From the NCBI RefSeq assembly GCF_988243305.1, contig NZ_OZ547136.1: a stretch of DNA of 64,000 bases; one strand, written 5' to 3'. Positions within the stretch are counted from its first letter, which is position 1; the number at the start of each line of letters is the position of its first letter. This document shows, piece after piece, positions 677 to 36,595 of the stretch. Made by a program: the position numbers and the translations under genes. The notes below the pieces were generated by a model. That model did not search any database. It saw nothing but the letters and a program-made list of their open reading frames with translations, and had not been told where the DNA came from.

Positions 677-1939
677 ATGATTATGTTTTTAAAAATGCAG
701 GCTGAAAGTATGAAGAATAAATACAAATTAAATGAGTTTTTGGATGTAAAACGCCTTCAGACCCTGCAGGACAACTTTTCAAAATCAATGATGATCGCGC
801 TCGTGGTTGTGGATGAGAATGGTATCCCGGTCACTAAGCCCAGCGGTTTTTCAGACTTCTGCATGCGTTCGCGTCTCAACCCGACACTGGCGCACCACTG
901 TTATGAAAGCGACAACGCTGGTGGCCGGGCCGCGATGCACGCTCGCAAACCGGTGGTTTATCGCTGCCACTGCGGTTTTGTCGAATTCGCTGTCCCAATC
1001 ATGATTAACGATCATTATCTCGGTGCTTTTATTTCCGGTCAGGTAAAAGTCGAAGAAGAGAAAGAACAGAGCATTTCCTATATTCTGAATAATAATGACG
1101 TCTGGAAAGATAATCCTTGGTTAATTAATTTGCACCAGAATACACGTCGCATGCCGTATGAGCGTTTTGAGTCTACTGCCTCGACGTTACTACACGTATC
1201 GTCTTATCTGGTCGAACAAGCGCACACCAATAATATCCAACGCGAACTTCGTAAAAAGGATCTTGCACTGGCTAATGAGTTAAGAAAACGTGTAGAGATA
1301 GAACGCTCACTACATGAAGCTGAATTTAAAGCGCTCTCTTATCAGATAAATCCGCACTTTTTATTTAACGTATTAAATACCATTGGCCGGTTAGCTTTTC
1401 TTGAAGATGCGCAGCGTACCGAAACAATGGTGCACGATTTCTCTGACATGATGCGCTATTTGTTACGTAAAAATAGTCACGGCCTGATTACTCTGCGTAA
1501 TGAAATAAATTACGTCAACAACTATATGTCGATCCAAAAAGTGCGTATGAGAGACCGTTTCGATTACCTGTGCGATATCCCGGAAAAATATCTGGATGTA
1601 GTCTGCCCGTTTTTGATCCTGCAACCGCTGGTGGAAAACTTCTTTAACTACGTAGTGGAGCCAAGGGATAGCAATAGTCATCTGCTGATCCGTGCCACGG
1701 ACGATGGCCTGAACGTGATTATTGAAGTCACTGACAATGGCGACGGCATCGCACCAGATACCATTAATCGCATTTTATCAGGCGACCAAAAATTGCAAAA
1801 AGGCAGTATTGGCATTAACAACATAAAAAATAGATTGAAGTTGTTATTTGGCGAGAGCTATGGCTTGGAAATAATGAGCCCTAACAAACCCAGGATGGGT
1901 ACAACCATTAAACTTCGGTTCCCAATGCAGGAAGCCTGA
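677..1939 (+). CDS. Cytoplasmic sensor histidine kinase with N-terminal PocR-type ligand-binding domain (LytS/YesM-type kinase core)
   Basis: 420 aa ORF; Cys/His-rich PocR-like N-terminus (CYESDNAGG...[14 protein letters not shown]), H-box NPHFLFN, C-terminal HATPase-like region; low GC. Confidence 0.7.
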
Positions 1940-1955
1940 TACAGGAAAAGGACAT

Positions 1956-3011
1956 ATGTTTACCATTGTTATCGTTGAAGATGAGCCCATCGAATTAGAA
2001 TCCCTGCGGCAGATTATCTCCCAGTGTGTGGAAAACGCTGCGATCCATGAAGCCTCAACCGGTAAAAAAGCGATTCACTTAATTGACCAACTGAGTCAAA
2101 TCGATATGATCTTAGTGGACATTAATATTCCGTTGCCGAACGGTAAACAGGTGATTGAATATCTGAAGAAAAAAAACAGCGATACTAAAATCATCGTAAT
2201 CACGGCCAATGATGACTTTGATATAGTACGCAGCATGTACAACCTTAAAGTGGATGATTATCTGCTCAAACCAGTGAAAAAATGTATCTTGACCGACACC
2301 ATCAAAAAAACCCTAGCATTCGACGAAGGAGAAAATGAAAAATCCCGCGCCCTAAAACAGAAAGTGTTCGCCATGATAGACGATTGCGATTACACCCAGT
2401 GGCACAACTTTATTTTTGACACGCTCAACGGTGCCTGTCCGGTGGATATGATAGAAGAGGATAAGCGCAAAGACGTGATCGATTTTCTGGAAATAGTTAG
2501 CCAGTATATGACCGCCAAAGGGGAAAAGTTAATGCCGACTAACCGTAAAGTCGCCGCGCTGATCAAAGACATCAACCAGTATGGCATGATGGAAAGCCGC
2601 TATTTCCGCATCATGATCAGCCTGCTGACCATTAGCGAAGAGCTGTTTGATTACGCATTAAAAGGCTATACAGGCAATATCGATTTTATCGAACGAGCGA
2701 AATTCCATATTGAGAAAAATATTCTCAGAAACTTGACGCTCGATGACGTGGCAGCAAAATCGTTTGTCAGTGCCTGCTATTTGAGCCGTACCTTTAAGAA
2801 AATTACCGGGTTCGGGTTTTCGAACTATATTGCCACGCGTAAAATTACTATCGCCAAATCGTTATTGCGGTTCAGTGACTTACAAGTAAATACCATTGCG
2901 CTGGAACTGGCATACCAGGATTCAAACTATTTTTGCCGCATCTTCAAAAAAGATACTGGCATGACCCCCTCTGATTATCGAAAAGTCGTGTCCCCGGGAA
3001 TTACACGGTGA
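1956..3011 (+). CDS. Response regulator with receiver domain and AraC-type HTH output (YesN-like)
   Basis: 351 aa; N-terminal receiver (IVEDEP...LVDINIP), C-terminal AraC HTH (YLSRTFKK...DSNYFCRIFKKDTGMTPSDYRK); start 17 nt after the kinase stop with RBS aaaagga. Confidence 0.75.
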   Translation: MFTIVIVEDEPIELESLRQIISQCVENAAIHEASTGKKAIHLIDQLSQIDMILVDINIPLPNGKQVIEYLKKKNSDTKIIVITANDDFDIVRSMYNLKVDDYLLKPVKKCILTDTIKKTLAFDEGENEKSRALKQKVFAMIDDCDYTQWHNFIFDTLNGACPVDMIEEDKRKDVIDFLEIVSQYMTAKGEKLMPTNRKVAALIKDINQYGMMESRYFRIMISLLTISEELFDYALKGYTGNIDFIERAKFHIEKNILRNLTLDDVAAKSFVSACYLSRTFKKITGFGFSNYIATRKITIAKSLLRFSDLQVNTIALELAYQDSNYFCRIFKKDTGMTPSDYRKVVSPGITR

Positions 3012-3139
3012 TGGCGTGATTTTGCATTGGCCCGATAATGAAAGCAAAATAGTCCAACACGCCCGCAAGATAGTTTACGCCCACTTGTCAGGTTCCTATC
3101 CTAAGATAGGAATAAACTTCCCAAACAAGTGGGCTCGCT

Positions 3140-4291
3140 TTGAACGATTACCTGTTTACCTCCGAATCCGTTGCCGAAGGGCATCCCGATAAAATGGCGG
3201 ACCAAATTTCTGATGCCATTTTGGATGCGATACTCCTACAGGACCCGTGGGGTAAGGTTGCCTGTGAATGCTTGGTGAAAACTGGTGCCACTATTGTTGC
3301 CGGAGAAATATCTACCCATGCCGCCGTGGATATTGAGAAGATTGTCCGCAACACCATAAAAGAGATTGGTTACGACCATTCGCGATTGGGGTTTGATGGC
3401 AATACCTGCTGTGTATTAAATATCCTTGGCAAACAGTCCGCCAATATTGCTGACGGCATTCGCGGCCACTCGATGGAAGAACTGGGGGCGGGCGATCAGG
3501 GCATCACCTTCGGTTACGCCTGTGATGAAACGTCGGAACTGATGCCCGCCACGCTGGTATACGCCCATCGTCTGATGGAGCGCCAGGCGCAGTTGCGTAA
3601 ATCCCAACGGTTACCATTTTTACTCCCTGATGCCAAAAGCCAGGTTACCCTGCGCTATCAGGATAATCGTGTTCATTCAGTAGATACCGTTGTGGTGTCT
3701 ACCCAACACAGCCCTGACGTTTCTCTGGACGCGCTACGGGAAGCGGTCATCGAAGAAATTGTTAAACCTGTGATGCCTTCGCACTGGCTCACGCCACAAA
3801 CCCGCTTTCTGGTGAACCCTGCAGGCAGTTTTGTGATTGGCGGGCCGGTGGGTGACTGCGGGCTAACGGGGCGTAAAATTATTGTTGATACCTATGGCGG
3901 CGCGGCTTGCCATGGCGGCGGCGCGTTTTCAGGCAAAGATCCGTCGAAAGTCGATCGTTCCGCCGCCTACGCTGCTCGCTATGTGGCGAAAAACATCGTC
4001 GCCGCTGGGCTTGCCTCACGCTGTGAAGTCCAGTTGGGATGGGCCATCGGCCTGCCCCGCCCTGTTTCCGTCAGGATTAACACCTTCGGTACACAAACAG
4101 TGTCATCTGAAGCGTTGCTGAGAGGCGTTAACAGCCATTTCGATCTTAGCGTGTTCGGCATCATTACTACGCTTGATCTGCTGGTCCCCCGCTATCGTAA
4201 AACAGCCTGCTATGGTCACTTTGGTCGCGACAGCTTTCCGTGGGAAGTTACGGACAAAGCGGCGCTATTATACGAAGACGTTGGACGTTAA
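3140..4291 (+). CDS. S-adenosylmethionine synthetase (methionine adenosyltransferase) paralogue
   Basis: 383 aa; MetK hallmarks [63 protein letters not shown]. Apparent TTG start with no obvious RBS; exact start uncertain. Confidence 0.8.
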
Positions 4292-4335
4292 GCCGACGAC
4301 GCGCAGCACAGTTGAATTTATTACAGGAGAAATTT

Positions 4336-4881
4336 ATGTCTGGGAAAAGTTTAGGCTTAATCGAAACCGTCGGGATGTCTGCGGCGGTAGAAGCCGCCGA
4401 TGCCGCAATGAAATCCGCTAACGTTAGTCTGGTAGGCTATGAATTGACGAAAGGCGGCGGGATGGTGACCGTGAAGCTGGAAGGGGAAGTGGGCGCAATT
4501 AACGCGGCGGTAGCGGCAGCCATCAGCGCGGCAAGCCGGGTTGGCGAGGTGTATGCCCATAAGGTGATCGCCCGCACCGCGCAGCATATCGAGCAGATTA
4601 TTCACTCTAAAGTGACCGCCGGCGTCGCAGAACCTCAACCTGAAGTGCCTGCTGCACAACCGACACTGCAGGCTGAAAACGCGCCTTCACAGACATTCCC
4701 GGTGGTTAACCTTGATACGTCAATCAGCGCATCCTGTATGGATGTCACTGATGAAACGCTGAAGTCCATGGAGCAGCATCAACCGGTTAAACCCTCAATA
4801 GAAAACACTAAACCTACAAAATCTGATGTACCGCAGGAGGCAGCAAAGAAAGGTCCTCGTTCCAGCGGCAAGAAAAAATAA
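4336..4881 (+). CDS. Bacterial microcompartment shell protein (BMC-H, PduA/EutM-like) with about 90-aa low-complexity C-terminal tail
   Basis: N-terminal 90 aa MSGKSLGLIETVGMSAAVEAADAAMKSANVSLVGYE... align with PduA/EutM; RBS aggag upstream of ATG at 4336; tail rich in P/A/Q/E/K. Confidence 0.75.
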   Translation: MSGKSLGLIETVGMSAAVEAADAAMKSANVSLVGYELTKGGGMVTVKLEGEVGAINAAVAAAISAASRVGEVYAHKVIARTAQHIEQIIHSKVTAGVAEPQPEVPAAQPTLQAENAPSQTFPVVNLDTSISASCMDVTDETLKSMEQHQPVKPSIENTKPTKSDVPQEAAKKGPRSSGKKK

Positions 4882-4899
4882 GTAAATTGCTATGACGCT

Positions 4900-4935
4900 G
4901 CCGCGATAACAATTTCTTTATCGCGGCATTTTTTT
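4900..4935 (+). terminator. Rho-independent terminator after the BMC-H gene
   Basis: Hairpin gccgcgataa / ttatcgcggc followed by a T-run. Confidence 0.6.
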
Positions 4936-5237
4936 GCTTAACAGATAAAGTAAAAAACCATCTGCATAGCGGGCGGCTTTGACACGGCCCCCTGAAAGGG
5001 GGCTTAAACACTACCCTTTCAGGCCCAGTTGTATTTGTCTTTCTTCTTCCTCTTTTGCTACCTTGTTCGAAAAGGGACGCTCGTCCTCGCCCACTGTTCT
5101 GTATGCATACCTGCTCCCACTGCAAATTATATTGCTGGGCTATGTTAACAAGCCTATATGCTATTAAAAACTCATGAGCAACATATTGATAATACCATTC
5201 TTATATATCCACGCTTAAGTAAATAACTCTTACATAA

Positions 5238-5435
5238 CTAACTATTCCATCTCACTTCTTCCTTAGCGAGTTTTCGGTATGCAATAGGAGCTATACCAAA
5301 GCGGCGAGTAAATGCCCTTGTAAATGTCTGCTGAAAATCAAACTGATATTTAAAAGTGATAGTCGTGACCGATTCAGTAGTAGAACGTAGTTCTTCTGCT
5401 GCATTTATTAATATACCTACCAATAGAAATACCAA
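5238..5435 (-). pseudogene. MarA/TetD-like AraC-family regulator, C-terminal fragment
   Basis: 65 aa ORF holds only the second HTH (KYQFDFQQTFTRAFTRRFGIAPIAYRK), similar to the TetD C-terminus; no intact N-terminal half in frame. Confidence 0.5.
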
Positions 5436-5553
5436 TGATATGTTTAAACAATTTCTGTAAATACCATTTTGAATATCCAGCTTTTTTGCCTCAATATTTA
5501 TTGAGAGTTCTACCTCAAGATTTTCATCAATTCATTTAGCAAGCTCATTGATA

Positions 5554-6225
5554 TCAGCGCTGTTTTTTATAGTAGCGTTCATTTTTATCGATGCCTGTGA
5601 AGGTTGATTGGGTCAACTCCAGTACTATGCAACCCTCTCTGAAAAGGGATTTATTATCAGGTTGCAGAATGCAACTTCGCACCACCCCCGTAAACAAAGA
5701 AAAAAGCAGGAACGCCAGAGCCTCACTACGAATTTCCGAACATATTTCTCTATATAACTTACCTTTTTCGAAAATATAACATAGTAATTTCACAAAATTA
5801 TTGACATCCACCATTTTTTGTAAGAAATTTATTCTTATATCATCCGGACATTCTTCACAAAAAAACACAATATAAATTACATTCCGTAAGTGTACATTAT
5901 ATTGTAATTTAATCAGGCTACGTGATAAGCAACGATACATCGCTTTAACCGGTTCAGAAACTCTCCCATTTTTGATGGCTGTAAGCTCATCAAATAATGA
6001 TAGTGGTACCCGCTCGATGACTTGTCGCAGAAGATCTTTTTTTTCGTTGAAATACCAGTATATGGCCCCCCGAGTACAACCTGCGCGCACCGCAATCATC
6101 TCCAGTGTCGTCTTCGAAAAGCCCGTCTCACAAAAGCAGAACTCTGCCGCATCCAGGATTTGTTTGCGGGTTTCTTCCGCTGCAAATTTTGTGTGCCGCA
6201 CCACTGTTGAAATCTCCATTGACAT
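5554..6225 (-). CDS. TetR/AcrR-family transcriptional repressor
   Basis: 223 aa; N-terminal TetR HTH (TRKQILDAAEFCFCETGFSKTTLEMIAVRAGCTRGAIYWYFNEK). Confidence 0.7.
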   Translation of the reverse strand: MSMEISTVVRHTKFAAEETRKQILDAAEFCFCETGFSKTTLEMIAVRAGCTRGAIYWYFNEKKDLLRQVIERVPLSLFDELTAIKNGRVSEPVKAMYRCLSRSLIKLQYNVHLRNVIYIVFFCEECPDDIRINFLQKMVDVNNFVKLLCYIFEKGKLYREICSEIRSEALAFLLFSLFTGVVRSCILQPDNKSLFREGCIVLELTQSTFTGIDKNERYYKKQR

Positions 6226-6324
6226 CTTATTTCAGGAAATATCTCTGGGGCATTTAGTACCAACCCAACAGCCATTTACTCAGGCGCAGTATGTTGTTTA
6301 CTGCACCTGAATATTTACTCATGC

Positions 6325-7389
6325 TTATGATTGCTCAGCTTCAGTCTTATCCGATGATTTCTTATTTCTGCGGCTGAAGAACCCGGCAATTAACATATAG
6401 AAGAGAGGAATATAAAAGATTGCCAGTATCGTAGCAGTGATCATCCCTCCAACCACACCAGTACCGATGGCATGTTTACTTCCGGAACTTGCTCCAGTCG
6501 AGACAGCCAGTGGGATAACCCCCATTACAAATGCCAGCGAAGTCATAATTATCGGTCTTAACCTCACTCTCGCCGCTTCAACAGCAGCCTCTTTAATGCT
6601 TAGTCCTTCTTTCTCATGCAATTCACGAGCAAACTCCACGATAAGTATGGCATTTTTCGCAGACAGCCCTATTGTTGTTAATAAACCGACCTGGAAAAAG
6701 ACATCGTTACCAAGGCCGCGCAACAAAGTAGCACAGACAGCCCCCAGGACACCAAGCGGAACAACCAGCATGACCGAGAAAGGAATGCTCCAGCTTTCAT
6801 ACAGTGCAGCCAGACACAGAAAGACGATCAACAGTGAAAGTGCATATAGTGCAGGAGCCTGAGAACCTGAAAGTCGTTCCTCAAAAGACAAACCTGTCCA
6901 GGAAATATGGAAACCTTCGGGAAGTCTTGCCGCAATATCCTCAATTGCTTTCATTGCATCCCCGGAACTGTATCCTGGTGCCGGTTCCCCCAGGATTTCG
7001 ACAGCAGAGATACCATTATATTGCTCCAGTTTTGGTGAGCCATAAATCCATTTGCCTGTTGCAAAAGAGGCAAAGGAAACCATGTCGCCATCACTGTTAC
7101 GGACATACCATTTATCAAAATCCTGCGGTGATATACGTGAGCCGGGTTCGCCCTAAATATAGACTTTTTTCACCCGTCCACGATCGTTAAAATCATTTAC
7201 ATACATCGAACCCCAGGCTGCTGGCATTATGTTGTCGACGTCGCTCATGCTCAGTTTAAGCGCCTGAACTTTCTCGTCATCAATCAGAATCTGGAACTGA
7301 GGCTCATCGTTCATGCCGTTAGGACGAACCATGTTTAACGCTGGACTTTTCGCCGCTTCAGCAAGAAGCTGATTTCGGGCCTGGATCAT
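6325..7389 (-). pseudogene. RND efflux transporter (AcrB/AcrF-like), C-terminal remnant, frameshifted and 5'-truncated by IS2
   Basis: ORFs 6325-7083 and 7153-7389 match the C-terminal third of AcrB-type pumps (VRPNGM...[27 protein letters not shown]...[13 protein letters not shown]) in two frames; upstream part absent, IS2 end at 7482. Confidence 0.7.
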
Positions 7390-9272: not shown

Positions 9273-9839
9273 TCAGAAGTGAGGGTTACGAGGACGCCCT
9301 GCAGCAGGACGTTCAGGAACTTCATTGCAGCCGTAGGCACACAGCCCGTCTTTTTGCTCTTCTTTTGCCAGATAATGCAGGGCACCGCGAATATTATCGA
9401 TGCTTTCAGGATCGTTGTGGCGCACAGGAATGTTGATGTTGTATGTATAATGCGGCTGATATGTACAGCGGTGTGCCGAACCGCTGTTATGTGTAATAGA
9501 CCGCCAGCATTCCGTAATCCGCTCCGCAAAGGGATATATTTTTTTAACCCTCTGACGATCGATCCACAAAACCGCATGCGCATGAAAACCATGATCAGCC
9601 GTCCATTCAATCACCCAGAAGAAACCAACGATATTTTCAAATTGTTCCACCTGCTCCAGCAGCATACGCAACTGCAATTCAAGCCAGCGATGATCAGGTT
9701 GTAAGAAATCGGGCGTATCTTTCCTGTAGAAGAAATCCATCCGTAAGGCCCGCAGGCAGGAATAGCGTGCCATCATTTGATTGATGTGATTGTCAAGTAA
9801 AGCGGTAAAAAACCAGTTTGGTGTGTAAGATTTAGGCAT
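9273..9839 (-). CDS. YfjJ/YagK-like (inovirus Gp2 family) island protein
   Basis: 188 aa; HxH motif (FHAHAVLWIDRQ) as in Gp2-like proteins; adjacent paralogue at 8440-9015. Confidence 0.45.
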   Translation of the reverse strand: MPKSYTPNWFFTALLDNHINQMMARYSCLRALRMDFFYRKDTPDFLQPDHRWLELQLRMLLEQVEQFENIVGFFWVIEWTADHGFHAHAVLWIDRQRVKKIYPFAERITECWRSITHNSGSAHRCTYQPHYTYNINIPVRHNDPESIDNIRGALHYLAKEEQKDGLCAYGCNEVPERPAAGRPRNPHF

Positions 9840-10671
9840 GTTGATGACTCCTGAAAGTTAATGATGTTTTAAGCTCTGTGAACGAATTAATGCTTTCGCT
9901 CATAACGGTAATAACTTACAGATGGTATTTATCAGGCATGCTGTAGCAGAATGGATACGACGGGTTATTAACGATACGCAGCATTATGCAGAAAGAAATG
10001 GATTATCTGATGGTATTAGCTAAAGAGATGAGATAAACGAGGAGTAAAGAAAATACAGACTCAATAAAACATCACGAAATACTGTAAAATACGAGCTAAA
10101 ACCCCACTACCTGGAGATTAAGAAACATATTGCGACCAATCACATCATAAACTACAAACTTGCTCTCAGTGAGTCTGCAAAAACGTGTACAAGGCCAACA
10201 CATATCTGTAACCTGATAAAATCATACACTCTCATTTAATCTGTTAAAAACAACTCACTTCAAAACATGAGCGTTAACGGGTACACGGTACCAGAATAAA
10301 ATATACCATGGATGGATAATTTTCATTTTGTTTAACATACAAGATAATCAGAAACGAACAAATATAATCAGGAATTCACTCTGTTAATTTCATTGTTTAT
10401 CCTGCGCTGTTAAACATGACGAAATCATGGATACCTTATCAAAGAGTAAACATCCAGTTAATCAGTGATGACAGAAGTATTGATATTTACCAGAATAGTT
10501 AAAACACTTCAGGTCAACAACAATCATCGTTAAGTCAATACAGTTCATTATGGATAATGACTAAAATCAATTGCTGTTTCAGTGAAGACTGATAACAGGT
10601 AGATATTAGCAACAACGTAGTAAAATAACTTATCTGAGTATCGTATGAATTACAGTAGTTATGATTGAATG

Positions 10672-27275: not shown

Positions 27276-27597
27276 ATGAAAACATTACCCGACACGCATG
27301 TACGGGAGGTATCGTGCTGCCCGTCTCCCGTCACCATCTGGCAGACACTGCTCACCCGGTTACTGGACCAGCATTACAGCCTTACGCTGAATGACACACC
27401 GTTCGCCGATGAACGTGTGATTGAGCAGCATATTGAGGCAGGTATTGCACTGTGTGATGCGGTGAACTTTCTCGTGGAAAAATACGCACTGGTACGAACC
27501 GACCAGCCGGGATTCAGCGCAGGAACTTCGTCGCAGTTAATCAACAGCATTGATATTCTCCGGGCACGCCGGGCAACAGGTCTGATGACCCGCAGCA
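27276..27597 (+). pseudogene. Type IV toxin of the CbtA/YeeV family, 3' end cut by Tn10
   Basis: [46 protein letters not shown]... is CbtA-like; from 27598 the frame reads into the IS10 outside end; the original 3' end resumes after Tn10 at 35053. Confidence 0.7.
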
Positions 27598-28923
27598 CTG
27601 ATGAATCCCCTAATGATTTTTATCAAAATCATTAAGTTAAGGTAGATACACATCTTGTCATATGATCAAATGGTTTCGCCAAAAATCAATAATCAGACAA
27701 CAAGATGTGCGAACTCGATATTTTACACGACTCTCTTTACCAATTCTGCCCCGAATTACACTTAAAACGACTCAACAGCTTAACGTTGGCTTGCCACGCA
27801 TTACTTGACTGTAAAACTCTCACTCTTACCGAACTTGGCCGTAACCTGCCAACCAAAGCGAGAACAAAACATAACATCAAACGAATCGACCGATTGTTAG
27901 GTAATCGTCACCTCCACAAAGAGCGACTCGCTGTATACCGTTGGCATGCTAGCTTTATCTGTTCGGGCAATACGATGCCCATTGTACTTGTTGACTGGTC
28001 TGATATTCGTGAGCAAAAACGACTTATGGTATTGCGAGCTTCAGTCGCACTACACGGTCGTTCTGTTACTCTTTATGAGAAAGCGTTCCCGCTTTCAGAG
28101 CAATGTTCAAAGAAAGCTCATGACCAATTTCTAGCCGACCTTGCGAGCATTCTACCGAGTAACACCACACCGCTCATTGTCAGTGATGCTGGCTTTAAAG
28201 TGCCATGGTATAAATCCGTTGAGAAGCTGGGTTGGTACTGGTTAAGTCGAGTAAGAGGAAAAGTACAATATGCAGACCTAGGAGCGGAAAACTGGAAACC
28301 TATCAGCAACTTACATGATATGTCATCTAGTCACTCAAAGACTTTAGGCTATAAGAGGCTGACTAAAAGCAATCCAATCTCATGCCAAATTCTATTGTAT
28401 AAATCTCGCTCTAAAGGCCGAAAAAATCAGCGCTCGACACGGACTCATTGTCACCACCCGTCACCTAAAATCTACTCAGCGTCGGCAAAGGAGCCATGGG
28501 TTCTAGCAACTAACTTACCTGTTGAAATTCGAACACCCAAACAACTTGTTAATATCTATTCGAAGCGAATGCAGATTGAAGAAACCTTCCGAGACTTGAA
28601 AAGTCCTGCCTACGGACTAGGCCTACGCCATAGCCGAACGAGCAGCTCAGAGCGTTTTGATATCATGCTGCTAATCGCCCTGATGCTTCAACTAACATGT
28701 TGGCTTGCGGGCGTTCATGCTCAGAAACAAGGTTGGGACAAGCACTTCCAGGCTAACACAGTCAGAAATCGAAACGTACTCTCAACAGTTCGCTTAGGCA
28801 TGGAAGTTTTGCGGCATTCTGGCTACACAATAACAAGGGAAGACTTACTCGTGGCTGCAACCCTACTAGCTCAAAATTTATTCACACATGGTTACGCTTT
28901 GGGGAAATTATGAGGGGATCTCC

Positions 28924-28926
<3 letters not shown>
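27598..28926 (+). mobile_element. IS10-left
   Basis: IS10 outside end and 402-aa transposase; the last few bases of the inside end differ from the canonical terminus. Confidence 0.85.
27705..28913 (+). CDS. IS10 transposase (IS4 family)
   Basis: 402 aa MCELDILHDSLYQFCPELHLKRLNSLTLACHALLDC... Confidence 0.9.
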   Translation: MCELDILHDSLYQFCPELHLKRLNSLTLACHALLDCKTLTLTELGRNLPTKARTKHNIKRIDRLLGNRHLHKERLAVYRWHASFICSGNTMPIVLVDWSDIREQKRLMVLRASVALHGRSVTLYEKAFPLSEQCSKKAHDQFLADLASILPSNTTPLIVSDAGFKVPWYKSVEKLGWYWLSRVRGKVQYADLGAENWKPISNLHDMSSSHSKTLGYKRLTKSNPISCQILLYKSRSKGRKNQRSTRTHCHHPSPKIYSASAKEPWVLATNLPVEIRTPKQLVNIYSKRMQIEETFRDLKSPAYGLGLRHSRTSSSERFDIMLLIALMLQLTCWLAGVHAQKQGWDKHFQANTVRNRNVLSTVRLGMEVLRHSGYTITREDLLVAATLLAQNLFTHGYALGKL

Positions 28927-29926
<1,000 letters not shown>

Positions 29927-29941
29927 CTAATTTTTGTTGAC

Positions 29942-29991
29942 ACTCTATCATTGATAGAGTTATTTTACCACTCCCTATCAGTGATAGAGAA
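29942..29991. promoter_or_regulatory. tet operators O1/O2 in the divergent tetR-tetA promoter region
   Basis: Palindromes actctatcattgatagagt and tccctatcagtgatagaga between tetR and tetA. Confidence 0.9.
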
Positions 29992-29998
29992 AAGTGAA

Positions 29999-31204
29999 AT
30001 GAATAGTTCGACAAAGATCGCATTGGTAATTACGTTACTCGATGCCATGGGGATTGGCCTTATCATGCCAGTCTTGCCAACGTTATTACGTGAATTTATT
30101 GCTTCGGAAGATATCGCTAACCACTTTGGCGTATTGCTTGCACTTTATGCGTTAATGCAGGTTATCTTTGCTCCTTGGCTTGGAAAAATGTCTGACCGAT
30201 TTGGTCGGCGCCCAGTGCTGTTGTTGTCATTAATAGGCGCATCGCTGGATTACTTATTGCTGGCTTTTTCAAGTGCGCTTTGGATGCTGTATTTAGGCCG
30301 TTTGCTTTCAGGGATCACAGGAGCTACTGGGGCTGTCGCGGCATCGGTCATTGCCGATACCACCTCAGCTTCTCAACGCGTGAAGTGGTTCGGTTGGTTA
30401 GGGGCAAGTTTTGGGCTTGGTTTAATAGCGGGGCCTATTATTGGTGGTTTTGCAGGAGAGATTTCACCGCATAGTCCCTTTTTTATCGCTGCGTTGCTAA
30501 ATATTGTCGCTTTCCTTGTGGTTATGTTTTGGTTCCGTGAAACCAAAAATACACGTGATAATACAGATACCGAAGTAGGGGTTGAGACGCAATCGAATTC
30601 GGTATACATCACTTTATTTAAAACGATGCCCATTTTGTTGATTATTTATTTTTCAGCGCAATTGATAGGCCAAATTCCCGCAACGGTGTGGGTGCTATTT
30701 ACCGAAAATCGTTTTGGATGGAATAGCATGATGGTTGGCTTTTCATTAGCGGGTCTTGGTCTTTTACACTCAGTATTCCAAGCCTTTGTGGCAGGAAGAA
30801 TAGCCACTAAATGGGGCGAAAAAACGGCAGTACTGCTCGGATTTATTGCAGATAGTAGTGCATTTGCCTTTTTAGCGTTTATATCTGAAGGTTGGTTAGT
30901 TTTCCCTGTTTTAATTTTATTGGCTGGTGGTGGGATCGCTTTACCTGCATTACAGGGAGTGATGTCTATCCAAACAAAGAGTCATCAGCAAGGTGCTTTA
31001 CAGGGATTATTGGTGAGCCTTACCAATGCAACCGGTGTTATTGGCCCATTACTGTTTGCTGTTATTTATAATCATTCACTACCAATTTGGGATGGCTGGA
31101 TTTGGATTATTGGTTTAGCGTTTTACTGTATTATTATCCTGCTATCGATGACCTTCATGTTAACCCCTCAAGCTCAGGGGAGTAAACAGGAGACAAGTGC
31201 TTAG
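29999..31204 (+). CDS. tetA: Tetracycline efflux MFS transporter TetA (class B)
   Basis: 401 aa from MNSSTKIALVITLLDAMGIGLIMPVLPTLLREF... Confidence 0.95.
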   Translation: MNSSTKIALVITLLDAMGIGLIMPVLPTLLREFIASEDIANHFGVLLALYALMQVIFAPWLGKMSDRFGRRPVLLLSLIGASLDYLLLAFSSALWMLYLGRLLSGITGATGAVAASVIADTTSASQRVKWFGWLGASFGLGLIAGPIIGGFAGEISPHSPFFIAALLNIVAFLVVMFWFRETKNTRDNTDTEVGVETQSNSVYITLFKTMPILLIIYFSAQLIGQIPATVWVLFTENRFGWNSMMVGFSLAGLGLLHSVFQAFVAGRIATKWGEKTAVLLGFIADSSAFAFLAFISEGWLVFPVLILLAGGGIALPALQGVMSIQTKSHQQGALQGLLVSLTNATGVIGPLLFAVIYNHSLPIWDGWIWIIGLAFYCIIILLSMTFMLTPQAQGSKQETSA

Positions 31205-31316
31205 TTATTTCGTCACCAAATGATGTTATTCCGCGAAATATAATGACCCTCTTGATAACCCAAGAGGGCATTTTTTACGATAAAGAAGATTTAGCTTCAA
31301 ATAAAACCTATCTATT

Positions 31317-31910
31317 TTATTTATCTTTCAAGCTCAATAAAAAGCCGCGGTAAATAGCAATAAATTGGCCTTTTTTATCGGCAAGCTCTTTTAGGTTTTT
31401 CGCATGTATTGCGATATGCATAAACCAGCCATTGAGTAAGTTTTTAAGCACATCATCATCATAAGCTTTAAGTTGGTTCTCTTGGATCAATTTGCTGACA
31501 ATGGCGTTTACCTTACCAGTAATGTATTCAAGGCTAATTTTTTCAAGTTCATTCCAACCAATGATAGGCATCACTTCTTGGATAGGGATAAGGTTTTTAT
31601 TATTATCAATAATATAATCAAGATAATGTTCAAATATACTTTCTAAGGCAGACCAACCATTTGTTAAATCAGTTTTTGTTGTGATGTAGGCATCAATCAT
31701 AATTAATTGCTGCTTATAACAGGCACTGAGTAATTGTTTTTTATTTTTAAAGTGATGATAAAAGGCACCTTTGGTCACCAACGCTTTTCCCGAGATCTCA
31801 TCTATTGAAACAGCTTGATAGCCTTTTTCAACAAACAATATTCGTGCTGAGTTAACCAGTGATTGATAGGTACTCTTAAAATTTTCTTGTTGATGATTTT
31901 TATTTTCCAT
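31317..31910 (-). CDS. tetC: Tn10 TetC (TetR-like transcriptional regulator)
   Basis: 197 aa from MENKNHQQ; conserved position between tetA and tetD. Confidence 0.8.
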   Translation of the reverse strand: MENKNHQQENFKSTYQSLVNSARILFVEKGYQAVSIDEISGKALVTKGAFYHHFKNKKQLLSACYKQQLIMIDAYITTKTDLTNGWSALESIFEHYLDYIIDNNKNLIPIQEVMPIIGWNELEKISLEYITGKVNAIVSKLIQENQLKAYDDDVLKNLLNGWFMHIAIHAKNLKELADKKGQFIAIYRGFLLSLKDK

Positions 31911-31997
31911 GATAGATTTAAAATAACATACCGTCAGTATGTTTATGGTATCATGATGATGTGGTCGTGACAATCTTAAGAACATTTAGGTTATTTT

Positions 31998-32414
31998 ATG
32001 TATATTGAACAGCATTCTCGCTATCAAAATAAAGCTAATAACATCCAATTAAGATATGATGATAAGCAGTTTCATACAACGGTTATCAAAGATGTTCTAT
32101 TATGGATTGAACATAATTTAGATCAGTCTTTACTGCTTGATGATGTGGCGAATAAAGCGGGTTATACCAAGTGGTATTTTCAGCGGCTGTTCAAAAAAGT
32201 AACAGGGGTCACACTGGCTAGCTATATTCGTGCTCGTCGTTTGACGAAAGCGGCTGTTGAGTTGAGGTTGACGAAAAAAACTATCCTTGAGATCGCATTA
32301 AAATATCAATTTGATTCCCAACAATCTTTTACACGTCGATTTAAGTACATTTTTAAGGTTACACCAAGTTATTATCGGCGTAATAAATTATGGGAATTGG
32401 AGGCAATGCACTGA
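31998..32414 (+). CDS. tetD: Tn10 TetD (MarA/SoxS-like AraC-family regulator)
   Basis: 138 aa; two AraC HTH units; stop codon lies in the IS10-right inside end as in Tn10. Confidence 0.85.
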   Translation: MYIEQHSRYQNKANNIQLRYDDKQFHTTVIKDVLLWIEHNLDQSLLLDDVANKAGYTKWYFQRLFKKVTGVTLASYIRARRLTKAAVELRLTKKTILEIALKYQFDSQQSFTRRFKYIFKVTPSYYRRNKLWELEAMH

Positions 32415-32632
32415 GAGATCCCCTCATAATTTCCCCAAAGCGTAACCATGTGTGAATAAATTTTGAGCTAGTAGGGTTGCAGCCACGAGTAAGTCTTCCC
32501 TTGTTATTGTGTAGCCAGAATGCCGCAAAACTTCCATGCCTAAGCGAACTGTTGAGAGTACGTTTCGATTTCTGACTGTGAACCGCCCCGGGAATCCTGG
32601 AGACTAAACTTCCTGAGAAAGAGGTAAACAGG

Positions 32633-32959
32633 ATGACTAAAAATACTCGTTTTTCCCCCGAAGTCCGTCAACGGGCAGTCCGTATGGTTCTGGAAAGTCA
32701 GAGCGAATATGACTCACAATGGGCGACAATTTGTTCCATTGCTCCAAAGATTGGCTGTACGCCGGAGACTCTGCGTGTCTGGGTTCGCCAGCATGAGCGG
32801 GATACCGGGGGCGGTGATGGAGGGCTCACCACCGCTGAACGTCAGCGTCTGAAAGAGCTGGAACGTGAAAATCGTGAACTGCGCCGCAGTAACGATATCC
32901 TTCGCCAGGCTTCCGCTTATTTTGCGAAGGCGGAGTTCGACCGCCTCTGGAAAAAATGA
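32633..32959 (+). CDS. IS629-like OrfA (IS3-family transposase N-terminal protein)
   Basis: [60 protein letters not shown]... Confidence 0.8.
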
Positions 32960-33846
32960 TGCCACTGCTGGATAAGCTGCGTGAGCAGTACGGGGTCGGA
33001 CCGCTATGCAGCGAACTGCATATTGCCCCGTCAACGTATTACCACTGTCAGCAACAGCGACATCATCCGGATAAACGCAGTGCCCGTGCGCAGCGCGATG
33101 ACTGGCTGAAGAAAGAGATACAGCGCGTATACGATGAAAATCACAAGGTATACGGTGTGCGTAAAGTCTGGCGTCAGTTGTTACGGGAAGGTATCAGAGT
33201 GGCCAGATGCACTGTGGCACGTCTCATGGCGGTTATGGGACTTGCCGGTGTTCTCCGGGGTAAAAAGGTCCGTACGACCATCAGCCGGAAAGCCGTTGCC
33301 GCAGGCGACCGCGTAAACCGTCAGTTCGTGGCAGAACGACCTGACCAGCTGTGGGTGGCTGATTTTACTTACGTCAGCACATGGCGGGGCTTCGTCTATG
33401 TGGCGTTCATCATTGATGTGTTTGCCGGATACATCGTGGGGTGGCGGGTCTCATCGTCCATGGAAACGACATTCGTGCTGGATGCACTGGAGCAGGCGTT
33501 ATGGGCCCGTCGACCGTCCGGCACGGTCCATCACAGTGATAAAGGTTCTCAGTATGTATCGCTGGCCTACACACAGCGGCTTAAGGAAGCCGGATTACTG
33601 GCATCAACAGGAAGTACAGGCGACTCGTATGACAACGCGATGGCGGAGAGCATCAATGGTCTTTACAAAGCGGAGGTAATACACCGTAAGAGCTGGAAAA
33701 ACCGTGCAGAAGTGGAACTGGCCACACTCACGTGGGTGGACTGGTATAACAATCGACGATTGCTGGAAAGGCTGGGCCATACTCCTCCGGCAGAAGCAGA
33801 AAAAGCTTATTATGCTTCCATCGGAAACGATGATCTGGCAGCCTGA
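32956..33846 (+). CDS. IS629-like OrfB (DDE integrase/transposase core; normally expressed as OrfAB by -1 frameshift)
   Basis: 296 aa with DDE-type core (…WVADFTYV…HHSDKGSQY…DNAMAES…). Confidence 0.8.
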
Positions 33847-34945
33847 GTTCACAGATAAAACACTCTCCAGGAAACCCGGGGCGGTTCACTGTGTTAGCCT
33901 GGAAGTGCTTGTCCCAACCTTGTTTCTGAGCATGAACGCCCGCAAGCCAACATGTTAGTTGAAGCATCAGGGCGATTAGCAGCATGATATCAAAACGCTC
34001 TGAGCTGCTCGTTCGGCTATGGCGTAGGCCTAGTCCGTAGGCAGGACTTTTCAAGTCTCGGAAGGTTTCTTCAATCTGCATTCGCTTCGAATAGATATTA
34101 ACAAGTTGTTTGGGTGTTCGAATTTCAACAGGTAAGTTAGTTGCTAGAACCCATGGCTCCTTTGCCGACGCTGAGTAGATTTTAGGTGACGGGTGGTGAC
34201 AATGAGTCCGTGTCGAGCGCTGATTTTTTCGGCCTTTAGAGCGAGATTTATACAATAGAATTTGGCATGAGATTGGATTGCTTTTAGTCAGCCTCTTATA
34301 GCCTAAAGTCTTTGAGTGACTAGATGACATATCATGTAAGTTGCTGATAGGTTTCCAGTTTTCCGCTCCTAGGTCTGCATATTGTACTTTTCCTCTTACT
34401 CGACTTAACCAGTACCAACCCAGCTTCTCAACGGATTTATACCATGGCACTTTAAAGCCAGCATCACTGACAATGAGCGGTGTGGTGTTACTCGGTAGAA
34501 TGCTCGCAAGGTCGGCTAGAAATTGGTCATGAGCTTTCTTTGAACATTGCTCTGAAAGCGGGAACGCTTTCTCATAAAGAGTAACAGAACGACCGTGTAG
34601 TGCGACTGAAGCTCGCAATACCATAAGTCGTTTTTGCTCACGAATATCAGACCAGTCAACAAGTACAATGGGCATCGTATTGCCCGAACAGATAAAGCTA
34701 GCATGCCAACGGTATACAGCGAGTCGCTCTTTGTGGAGGTGACGATTACCTAACAATCGGTCGATTCGTTTGATGTTATGTTTTGTTCTCGCTTTGGTTG
34801 GCAGGTTACGGCCAAGTTCGGTAAGAGTGAGAGTTTTACAGTCAAGTAATGCGTGGCAAGCCAACGTTAAGCTGTTGAGTCGTTTTAAGTGTAATTCGGG
34901 GCAGAATTGGTAAAGAGAGTCGTGTAAAATATCGAGTTCGCACAT
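33728..34945 (-). pseudogene. IS10-right transposase, C-terminus replaced by read-through into IS629
   Basis: Identical to the IS10-left transposase for about 350 residues, then diverges (…ANTVNRPGFPGECF…) at the IS629 junction. Confidence 0.8.
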
Positions 34946-35113
34946 CTTGTTGTCTGATTATTGATTTTTGGCGAAACCATTTGATCATATGACAAGATGT
35001 GTATCTACCTTAACTTAATGATTTTTACCAAAATCATTAGGGGATTCATCAGCCCGCAGCAACTACAGAACGGTAAATAACATTACCCGGGGGAAGCATC
35101 CGGAGGCGAAACA

Positions 35114-35536
35114 ATGAAACTGGCCCTGACGCTGGAAGCCGACAGCATTAACGTGCAGGCACTGAACATGGGGCGCATTGTCGTTGACGTCGATGGTGTT
35201 AATCTCGCTGAACTGTTTAATAAAGTCGCGGAAAATGGTTATTCACTCCGCGTGGTGGATGAGCGTGTCACTACCGAAACACCGGCGACCTCTGCCAGCC
35301 CTCATCAGTTGCCGGAAGACAATACAGTGATACAGAGCGTAATGCCATTAGCCACAGAAACGGCGCTGGATATTCTGATTGTGTGGCTGCAGGACAATAT
35401 CGACTGCGAATCGGGGATTATCTTCGACAACGATGAGGATAAAACGGATTCGGCAGCACTGTTGCCCTGCATTGAACAGGCCAGGGAAGATATCCATACC
35501 CTGCGCCAACTACAGCTTCTGCACCAGAACCGGTAA
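35114..35536 (+). CDS. Hypothetical protein in the position downstream of cbtA (YeeW-like position)
   Basis: 140 aa ORF beginning 53 nt after the Tn10 right end; family not verified. Confidence 0.4.
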   Translation: MKLALTLEADSINVQALNMGRIVVDVDGVNLAELFNKVAENGYSLRVVDERVTTETPATSASPHQLPEDNTVIQSVMPLATETALDILIVWLQDNIDCESGIIFDNDEDKTDSAALLPCIEQAREDIHTLRQLQLLHQNR

Positions 35537-35620
35537 ATATTACTCACCATACTTCATTCCACTGACGCCAGCCTGAACAGGGCTGGCGTTTTCATTTATC
35601 TGCAAAAAGGAAAAACGATT

Positions 35621-36463
35621 ATGTCTGAAATCACAGTCTCCCGTCCGGAAGTGGTCAACGGACATACGGACGTTATCTGCTCAACCTCAGTCAGCCACAT
35701 TCTGGCTGTACGAAAGAGTACACTGTTGCAAATCGACATACTTATCCGGCAACTGGCTGAAATCTCAGCAATGACAGAAAGTATTGGCGGTAAAACCGCA
35801 CTGGACTGGGCCATGAAACAGGATTTTCGCTGCGGCTGCTGGCTCATGGAGAAACCTGAAACGGCAATGAAAGCCATTACCCGCAACCTTGACCGTGAAA
35901 TCTGGCGTGACCTGATGCAACGCTCCGGGATGCTGTCATTAATGGATGCGCAGACCCGTGATACATGGTACCGGTCACTGGAGTACGATAATTTTCCGGA
36001 AATCAGTGAAGCGAACATTATGAGCACATTTGAACAACTGCACCAGAATAAGGATGAGGTGTTTGAGCGGGGAGTGATTAACGTCTTCAGGGGACTGAGC
36101 TGGAATTATAAAACCAACTCTCCCTGTAAATTTGGCAGTAAAATTATCGTCAACAATCTGGTGAGATGGGGCCGGTGGGGATTTCATCTTATCACCGGAC
36201 CACAGACTGACCGGGTTGCCGACCTGGAAAGGATGCTGCATCTCTTCAGTGGCATCCCCACTCCCGACAACCGGGAAAATATCATAATTCGTCTGGATGA
36301 GCATATCCGGTCTGTTCAGGGTAAAGAGTACTATGAAGACGAAATGTTTATCATTAAATACTTTAAGAAGGGATCTGCACACATCACTTTCAAAAGGCTG
36401 GAACTGATTGACAGAATTAACGATATAATAGTCAGGCACTTTCCTTCTGTGCTCTCAGCCTGA
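35621..36463 (+). CDS. Conserved hypothetical island-distal protein (possibly DUF4942-like; uncertain)
   Basis: 280 aa ORF with RBS aaaagga; last gene before the island boundary. Confidence 0.4.
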   Translation: MSEITVSRPEVVNGHTDVICSTSVSHILAVRKSTLLQIDILIRQLAEISAMTESIGGKTALDWAMKQDFRCGCWLMEKPETAMKAITRNLDREIWRDLMQRSGMLSLMDAQTRDTWYRSLEYDNFPEISEANIMSTFEQLHQNKDEVFERGVINVFRGLSWNYKTNSPCKFGSKIIVNNLVRWGRWGFHLITGPQTDRVADLERMLHLFSGIPTPDNRENIIIRLDEHIRSVQGKEYYEDEMFIIKYFKKGSAHITFKRLELIDRINDIIVRHFPSVLSA

Positions 36464-36573
36464 TCCCGAGTGTGATTCCCTTTCGATATCAAAAGGGACT
36501 GCGGGTATAATTGAGGGTACATTTTTAATCAAACCAAACAAATCAGATTAATATCAATATGATAAAAGAAATT

Positions 36574-36595
36574 TTCGATTCCGAGTCCGGCACCA
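36574..36595 (+). other. Island right junction (attR-like): direct repeat of the tRNA-Phe 3' end, one G missing
   Basis: ttcgattccgagtccgg-cacca matches the T-arm/acceptor 3' end of E. coli tRNA-Phe (TTCGATTCCGAGTCCGGGCACCA); not a complete tRNA. Confidence 0.7.

Follow-up and report, generated by a model that had tools for sequence, protein, structure and literature searches.

A Tn10 derivative with an IS629-group element in IS10-right and a left IS10 copy that encodes a right-type transposase

We found that a Tn10 derivative in the analyzed window, a 64,000-nt stretch of contig NZ_OZ547136.1 (assembly GCF_988243305.1), carries an IS629-group element in its right IS10 copy (nest at 32576–33891), while its left IS10 copy encodes a transposase of the right type. 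The account that we favor, to which we assign a probability of roughly 70%, is that IS629 inserted into IS10-right, that the right transposase was most likely lost, and that the transposon would be mobile from its left copy. Despite the damage to the right copy, the Tn10 derivative is probably not stranded, because the left copy encodes a right-type transposase and both outside ends are intact.

The nested element is a complete insertion sequence of 1,310 bp (32579–33888, + strand) with imperfect terminal inverted repeats. Its left end is TGAACCGCCCCGGG and its right end is CCCGGGGCGGTTCA, which match as inverted repeats at 23 of the 25 terminal positions; the element starts with TG and finishes with CA. 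Two overlapping reading frames are found on the (+) strand, namely orfA (32633–32959; 108 aa), with the Pfam domain HTH_Tnp_1, and orfB (32956–33846; 296 aa), with the Pfam domains HTH_21 and rve (DDE integrase core). The overlap falls at an A6 slippery run at 32951, which is spanned by an ALIL frameshift-stimulating pseudoknot (32914–33030, + strand; Rfam RF01497, 120 bits, full length), and a programmed frameshift is annotated in an identical IS629 copy on record. In length (1,310 bp), TG…CA inverted repeats, 3-bp duplication, orfA/orfB and ALIL, the element agrees with IS629, and no structural difference between the two was observed. Elements of the IS3 family transpose in a copy-out-paste-in mode, and, judging from its features, this copy looks fully functional and could move on.

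The same copy, identical at all 1,310 bp, is carried by numerous chromosomes and plasmids of E. coli, and copies of at least 99% identity are present in 1,298 records. The only PGAP label of the exact copies is "IS3 family transposase". The exact OrfB protein has E. coli entries, CFT073 accessions included, and its 90% cluster contains members under the name "IS629 transposase OrfB". The alignment to IS629/IS1203 references that the initial annotation had proposed as a check yielded 96.3% identity over 1,310 bp to a copy named IS1203 and 99.4% over 659 bp to a partial copy named IS629, both of which are PGAP-named proxies used in place of the Shigella sonnei IS629 type sequence, with the partial one covering only those 659 bp. 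IS1203 and IS3411 are treated as isoforms of IS629, the subtypes of which are 4–5% apart and the target duplications of which measure 3–4 bp (PMC3271280). Given this isoform status, the 4–5% spread among subtypes and the fitting duplication size, the name "IS629-like" that had first been given to the element is right, and its ends, its reading frames and the ALIL pseudoknot agree with the IS629 group of the IS3 family.

Next, we examined how the element is embedded in IS10-right. It is flanked by two copies of CTG (32576–32578 and 33889–33891), the left of which corresponds to IS10 nt 1162–1164. On one side lies the inner IS10-right fragment (32411–32578, − strand), which runs from IS10 nt 1329 down to 1162 and comprises an intact inside end plus one CTG; on the other lies the outer fragment (33889–35052, − strand; IS10 nt 1–1164), with an intact outside end of the R type. 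The mapped IS10 ends of the transposon are at 27598 (outside, + strand), 32411 (inside) and 35052 (outside, − strand), and the interrupted copy spans 32411–35052, a length of 2,642 bp that is the sum of 1,329, 1,310 and 3. Joining 32411–32578 to 33892–35052 gives exactly 1,329 bp that align without a gap to the left IS10 copy. Because excision of IS629 together with one CTG restores IS10, the CTG pair is a true duplication of IS10 nt 1162–1164 rather than a chance repeat, and both the 3-bp duplication size and the intact 1,329-bp IS10 left after excision fit an IS629 insertion. In the IS10 part of the reference alignment, the restored IS10-right differs from that of R100 (NC_002134) by 3 nt (nt 47, 83 and 203), without any change in the encoded protein. 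The interrupted copy is the true right copy, as it adjoins tetD and its outside end has the R-type bases of R100 (G24, G25 and A27). The initial annotation had described a CTG duplication around an element in the 3′ part of the IS10-right transposase gene, and both observations hold, the insertion lying at codon 352/353 of 402. Its span of 32576–33891 is correct with a slight refinement: it takes in both CTG copies, IS629 proper being the 1,310 bp between them.

This structure is what would be expected if an intact IS629-group element had transposed into IS10-right of the Tn10 derivative at IS10 nt 1162–1164, leaving its usual 3-bp duplication upon arrival. Since IS629 and IS10 are both multicopy repeats in E. 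coli, and the exact junction was seen in no other record, one could also suppose a repeat-induced misassembly in which an IS629 copy was joined to an IS10 copy from elsewhere in the genome. However, such a mis-join would not leave both junctions clean and bordered by a direct duplication of 3 bp whose removal restores IS10 to the base, nor would it be expected to reproduce the insertion length and duplication size that IS629 predicts; moreover, an equivalent nest is present in a finished genome, that of E. coli 23CRST009 (NZ_AP045766.1). We therefore regard an assembly artifact as extremely improbable. In 23CRST009, the right IS10 copy of Tn10 is occupied by an IS1203 element of 1,310 bp, with a 3-bp duplication and the same relative orientation, but it is another isoform (96.2% identical to the IS629 of the window) and its insertion site is IS10 nt 364–366, where it divides the transposase near residue 86, as opposed to nt 1162–1164 here. 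In addition, the 23CRST009 transposon is otherwise full length with jemA–C, and its left copy encodes an IS10-left-type protein (WP_001352368.1). The 23CRST009 element is an independent insertion, and this type of event is not unique to the window.

The composite transposon extends from 27598 to 35052 (7,455 bp) and consists of inverted copies of IS10, a member of the IS4 family, around the tet(B) determinant. It is bordered by a 9-bp target duplication, CCCGCAGCA, with identical copies at 27589–27597 and 35053–35061. When the flanks are joined with a single CCCGCAGCA, they form an empty site that is found in one piece, at 99.9% identity, in many E. coli genomes, in a stretch encoding a cbtA-family toxin and DUF5983, DUF957 and DUF4942 proteins. 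The 9-bp repeat and the uninterrupted empty site indicate that IS10-type transposition brought the transposon into the 3′ end of the cbtA-like toxin gene. The tetracycline-resistance genes comprise tetR(B) (29294–29917, − strand; 99.9% identical to R100 Tn10), tetA(B) (29999–31204, + strand), with one substitution relative to R100 (T171A), tetC (31317–31910, − strand; assigned by alignment to R100 Tn10) and tetD (31998–32414, + strand; 138 aa, identical to R100), the stop codon of which lies within the inside end of IS10-right. In common with the 9,147-bp Tn10 of R100 (NC_002134), the transposon has inverted IS10 copies that enclose tetR-tetA-tetC-tetD (99.9% identical, leaving aside the one tetA substitution), an L-type and an R-type outside end, each on the side where it is expected, and a 9-bp target duplication. 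In contrast to R100, the window element lacks nt 1326–4329, contains IS629 in IS10-right and has homogenized IS10 copies, with a right-type protein encoded on the left and with nt 47 and 83 of the L type in both. It is therefore a deletion derivative, as opposed to the full 9,147-bp Tn10 with jemA, jemB and jemC.

The internal deletion (3,004 bp; R100 Tn10 nt 1326–4329) and the clipping of the IS10-left inside end had been overlooked in the initial annotation. At the junction is a microhomology, GGGGATCTC (28914–28922), and the break sits inside an imperfect 20-bp similarity. The deletion takes the last 4 bp of the IS10-left inside end, jemA/gltS, jemB and the first 97 codons of jemC, and the ArsR-like jemC remnant from codon 98 onwards is fused to inner IS10-left sequence (28888–29316, + strand). 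The terminal base pairs of IS10 ends are needed for cleavage. Because the deletion removed the inside terminus, IS10-left should not move alone or take part in inside-out events, i.e., it should no longer be mobile by itself.

We then considered what the insertion does to the right transposase. The resulting reading frame (33728–34945, − strand) is a chimera of 405 aa that joins residues 1–353 of the IS10 transposase to 52 residues read from IS629 in antisense, such that the last 49 native residues are swapped for 52 unrelated ones. The replacement of the transposase C-terminus noted at the outset is thereby confirmed, as is the identity of the two IS10 reading frames up to the junction, which applies to both protein and DNA. 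The chimera keeps the Pfam domain DDE_Tnp_1 (residues 90–327) and all of the catalytic DDE/YREK residues. Specifically, D97, D161 and E292, the catalytic residues of IS10, are invariant in an alignment of 42 full-length homologues and are retained in the chimera. The lost tail contains residues that are likewise invariant in these 42 homologues, the most distant at 47% identity (V358, L359, S360, R363 and E367), as well as residues that are nearly invariant (R356, L364, G365, Y374, G396 and L402). In an AlphaFold2 model of the IS10 transposase (mean pLDDT, 88; pTM, 0.86), two predicted helices with a pLDDT of about 91 (residues 361–370 and 378–395) fall within this tail.

A search of PDB chains with the IS10 transposase sequence gave no match even at E = 10, so a link to the Tn5 transposase emerged only through the predicted structure and Foldseek, the best solved-structure matches being Tn5 transposase chains that align over approximately the full length (E = 5e-11; TM score of about 0.58). 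According to Steiniger-White and Reznikoff (2000), the C-terminal helix of Tn5 transposase is required for dimerization and synaptic-complex formation, and mutation there abolishes dimerization (as cited in PMC6182136). The chimera would accordingly keep the N-terminal DNA-binding part and the DDE core and lose the last 49 residues of a conserved C-terminal helical domain. Because the lost tail carries invariant residues and two confidently predicted helices, we infer that the right IS10 copy probably makes no active transposase, based on the conservation of the tail and the analogy with Tn5.

The fate of the transposon then hinges on the left copy. IS10-left (27598–28922, + strand) comprises 1,325 of 1,329 bp; the last 4 bp of its inside end are gone, and its intact outside end is L type at nt 24, 25 and 27. 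Its transposase gene is intact (27705–28913, + strand; 402 aa; DDE_Tnp_1 at residues 90–327), and the protein is identical to the IS10-right transposase of R100. The IS10-left and IS10-right of R100 are distinguished by 15 positions, of which four alter amino acids (I266V, S381L, T389A and V398A), and the left reading frame of the window carries none of the four residues typical of IS10-left (I266, S381, T389 and V398). At the nucleotide level, the left copy is L type at nt 24, 25, 27, 47 and 83 and R type from nt 107 onwards, and the right copy is L type at nt 47 and 83 and R type at nt 24, 25 and 27 and from nt 107 onwards. An A at nt 203 is a private synonymous change common to both. Over nt 28–1325 the two copies do not differ at all, a pattern suggestive of gene conversion between these inverted repeats. 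As the copies are homogenized over this range, the left one has a right-type transposase gene with the same promoter and antisense region as the right one.

Both copies also match R100 IS10-right over nt 48–82, which lies directly before the start of RNA-IN and should contain pIN and its dam site, and over nt 84–202, which takes in the start codon and should contain pOUT. The antisense RNA RNA-OUT is recognized in IS10-left (27643–27712, − strand; Rfam RF00240, 99.5 bits, full length) and in IS10-right (34938–35007, + strand; RF00240, 99.5 bits). The end of RNA-OUT is nt 47, and the third base of RNA-IN is nt 83; with L-type bases at both positions of the RNA-OUT/RNA-IN region, expression of the left copy could fall below that of R100 IS10-right.

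In Tn10, IS10-right is the functional copy, and IS10-left is described as inactive as a result of a few nucleotide differences (PMC5006887; PMC11148124), in agreement with the premise of the initial annotation that IS10-right normally supplies the active transposase. From this premise comes the reading of the initial annotation, in which the loss of working transposase to IS629 would probably leave the tetracycline-resistance transposon immobile. Besides the classical division of labor between the arms, this reading can draw on the absence of the conserved C-terminal segment from the right transposase, on the L-type bases at nt 47 and 83, which lie in the regulatory region of both copies and could weaken expression, and on the finding of the derivative at no second insertion site in the collections searched. 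However, the left reading frame is intact, its product equals the IS10-right transposase of R100 and lacks all four amino-acid changes of IS10-left, and nt 48–82 and 84–202 are the same as in R100 IS10-right; furthermore, neither outside end is damaged, and it was by transposition that the element reached its present site. The transposon being "probably immobilised", as the initial annotation put it, is not supported, and its proviso, "unless IS10-left is functional", describes the situation in the window as far as the sequence allows a judgment. We consider it unlikely that the transposon is fixed in place, and the classical rule of a functional right and an inactive left copy does not transfer to this Tn10 derivative, judging by its alleles.

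On the account that we favor, the transposon would remain mobile from its left copy. The outside ends are the only sites required for movement of the composite, and in the window both are intact. The entire 7,455-bp tetR-tetA-tetC-tetD unit, with IS629 as a passenger, would then be mobilizable from the left copy. The interrupted copy, IS10-right::IS629, would itself retain both ends but would rely on left-copy transposase. The 9-bp duplication is proof of one transposition of the outer ends into this site, but not of one that postdates the arrival of IS629.

A different possibility is that the chimera is not simply inert but dominant-negative, binding IS10 ends, forming no synaptic complex and so poisoning transposition driven by the left copy. 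Such a role would be compatible with the retained N-terminal region and DDE core and with a loss confined to the C-terminal helices, given that mutation of the C-terminal helix in Tn5 is described as abolishing dimerization in the work cited in PMC6182136. However, it is pure inference and depends on the stability of a protein with a foreign tail of 52 residues, and the IS10 transposase acts mainly in cis (PMC6182136), so each IS10 transposase would mostly meet its own nearby end. We therefore consider a dominant-negative chimera highly unlikely. Equally speculative, and put forward as a long shot, is the notion that either a stable chimera dampens the mobility of the tet transposon as an inhibitor that binds ends but is defective in synapsis, or the 2,642-bp IS10-right::IS629 is a new compound element that moves on IS10 ends and also seeds IS629 copies.

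Finally, we asked how common the two junctions are. A 200-bp query across the IS629/IS10 junction had no contiguous match in 5,426 complete E. coli genomes or 72,556 PLSDB plasmids, and exact patterns of the junction were not found in GTDB species representatives or JGI metagenome contigs. Three E. coli matches that appeared to cover the full query were rejected, as each consisted of two separate pieces 367–601 bp apart, and another match (H3) that seemed to possess both flanks was rejected on account of a different insertion context. A gene-position index, queried for the exact sequence of the 405-aa chimera, has no record of it; a cluster member of the same length (P0158) proved to be an N-terminal start-site variant and was rejected as the chimera. 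Searches of E. coli genomes, plasmids and GTDB representatives for the Tn10 deletion junction brought up only a different deletion variant, with about 172 bp more retained; Tn10 thus does occur in other deletion forms, but this junction is absent from those collections. No second site with the exact derivative was found in E. coli genomes, plasmids, GTDB representatives, JGI metagenomes or the protein look-up, and IS629 in Tn10 is absent from the IEE preprint.

Taken as a whole, the case is one of routine IS-in-IS nesting within an antibiotic-resistance transposon of an E. coli genomic island, and mechanistically it is nothing new. Since the IS629/IS10 and Tn10 deletion junctions are both absent from every collection searched, the structure provides a clean marker by which to trace the tetracycline-resistance island of this strain, and otherwise it means little beyond bookkeeping. 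It does carry a caution, namely, that "left" and "right" in IS10 cannot safely be equated with weak and strong alleles; in the window, the left arm encodes the right-type protein, and in other present-day Tn10 copies, a left-type protein is encoded by both arms. As the position of an IS10 arm is not the same as the strength of its allele, the mobility of Tn10 must be predicted from the actual sequence of each arm.

The Tn10 derivative (window 27598-35052) interrupts the 3′-terminal part of a cbtA-family toxin gene (window 27276-27635 and 35053-35113), and through this insertion the final ~20 residues of the toxin are swapped for a shorter tail read from IS10. The toxin gene belongs to a CP4-44-like island, with a yeeU-type antitoxin upstream and DUF5983 downstream. 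The island part of window 7360-36595 (7360-27597 and 35053-36595) displayed 99.9-99.99% identity to an island of E. coli WP4-S17-ESBL-08. There, the matching island adjoins cadC, whereas in the window the genes beyond the island, within 36596-64000, are those of a type II secretion cluster (gspD and others), sslE, glcA, glcB and glcF, indicating that the island occupies a different chromosomal site from that in WP4-S17-ESBL-08. ARAGORN detected no tRNA genes in the whole 64,000-nt window. Window 677-7083, left of the part in common with the reference island, contains two genes for PocR/AraC-type regulators, one for a metK-like methionine adenosyltransferase (window 3140-4291) and one for a TetR/AcrR-family repressor (window 5554-6225).

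Relative to the Tn10 of plasmid R100, the window copy is missing 3,004 bp internally, corresponding to R100 Tn10 nt 1326-4329, with the deletion junction at window 28914-28922 marked by GGGGATCTC microhomology. This deletion removed jemA/gltS, jemB and codons 1-97 of jemC and left the inside end of IS10-left without its terminal 4 bp. The junction had no match in E. coli genomes, plasmids or GTDB representatives. The tetR-tetA-tetC-tetD genes are otherwise the same as those of R100, apart from one substitution in tetA(B) (window 30509), which results in T171A.

The two arms, IS10-left (window 27598-28922) and IS10-right (window 32411-35052), have been homogenised over nt 28-1325, and the protein encoded by IS10-left is of the IS10-right type. 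At nt 47 and nt 83, both arms have the bases of the IS10-left type, and they share a private A at nt 203. The homogenised state of the arms looks like the outcome of gene conversion between the inverted copies.

A second IS3-family insertion into IS10, and an apparent one into an IS10 relative, were also identified. In E. coli 23CRST009 (NZ_AP045766.1), a 1,310-bp IS1203 (9285-10594) lies within IS10-right of a full-length Tn10, with IS10 nt 364-366 as its target and a 3-bp duplication; this nested insertion is independent of that in the window. P0037, a 366-aa database protein present on 9 contigs, is IS10-like over its first ~265 residues (83% identity) and continues as IS3-family OrfB-like sequence (Pfam HTH_21); it appears to reflect a further IS3-family insertion, into an IS10 relative.

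Among present-day full-length Tn10 copies, that of NZ_CP063479.1 (16764-25910) encodes the IS10-left-type protein WP_001352368.1 (named ISVsa5 by PGAP) in both arms, and the 23CRST009 copy does so in its intact left arm. Therefore, the classical layout of a weak left and a strong right arm, as in R100, is not general.
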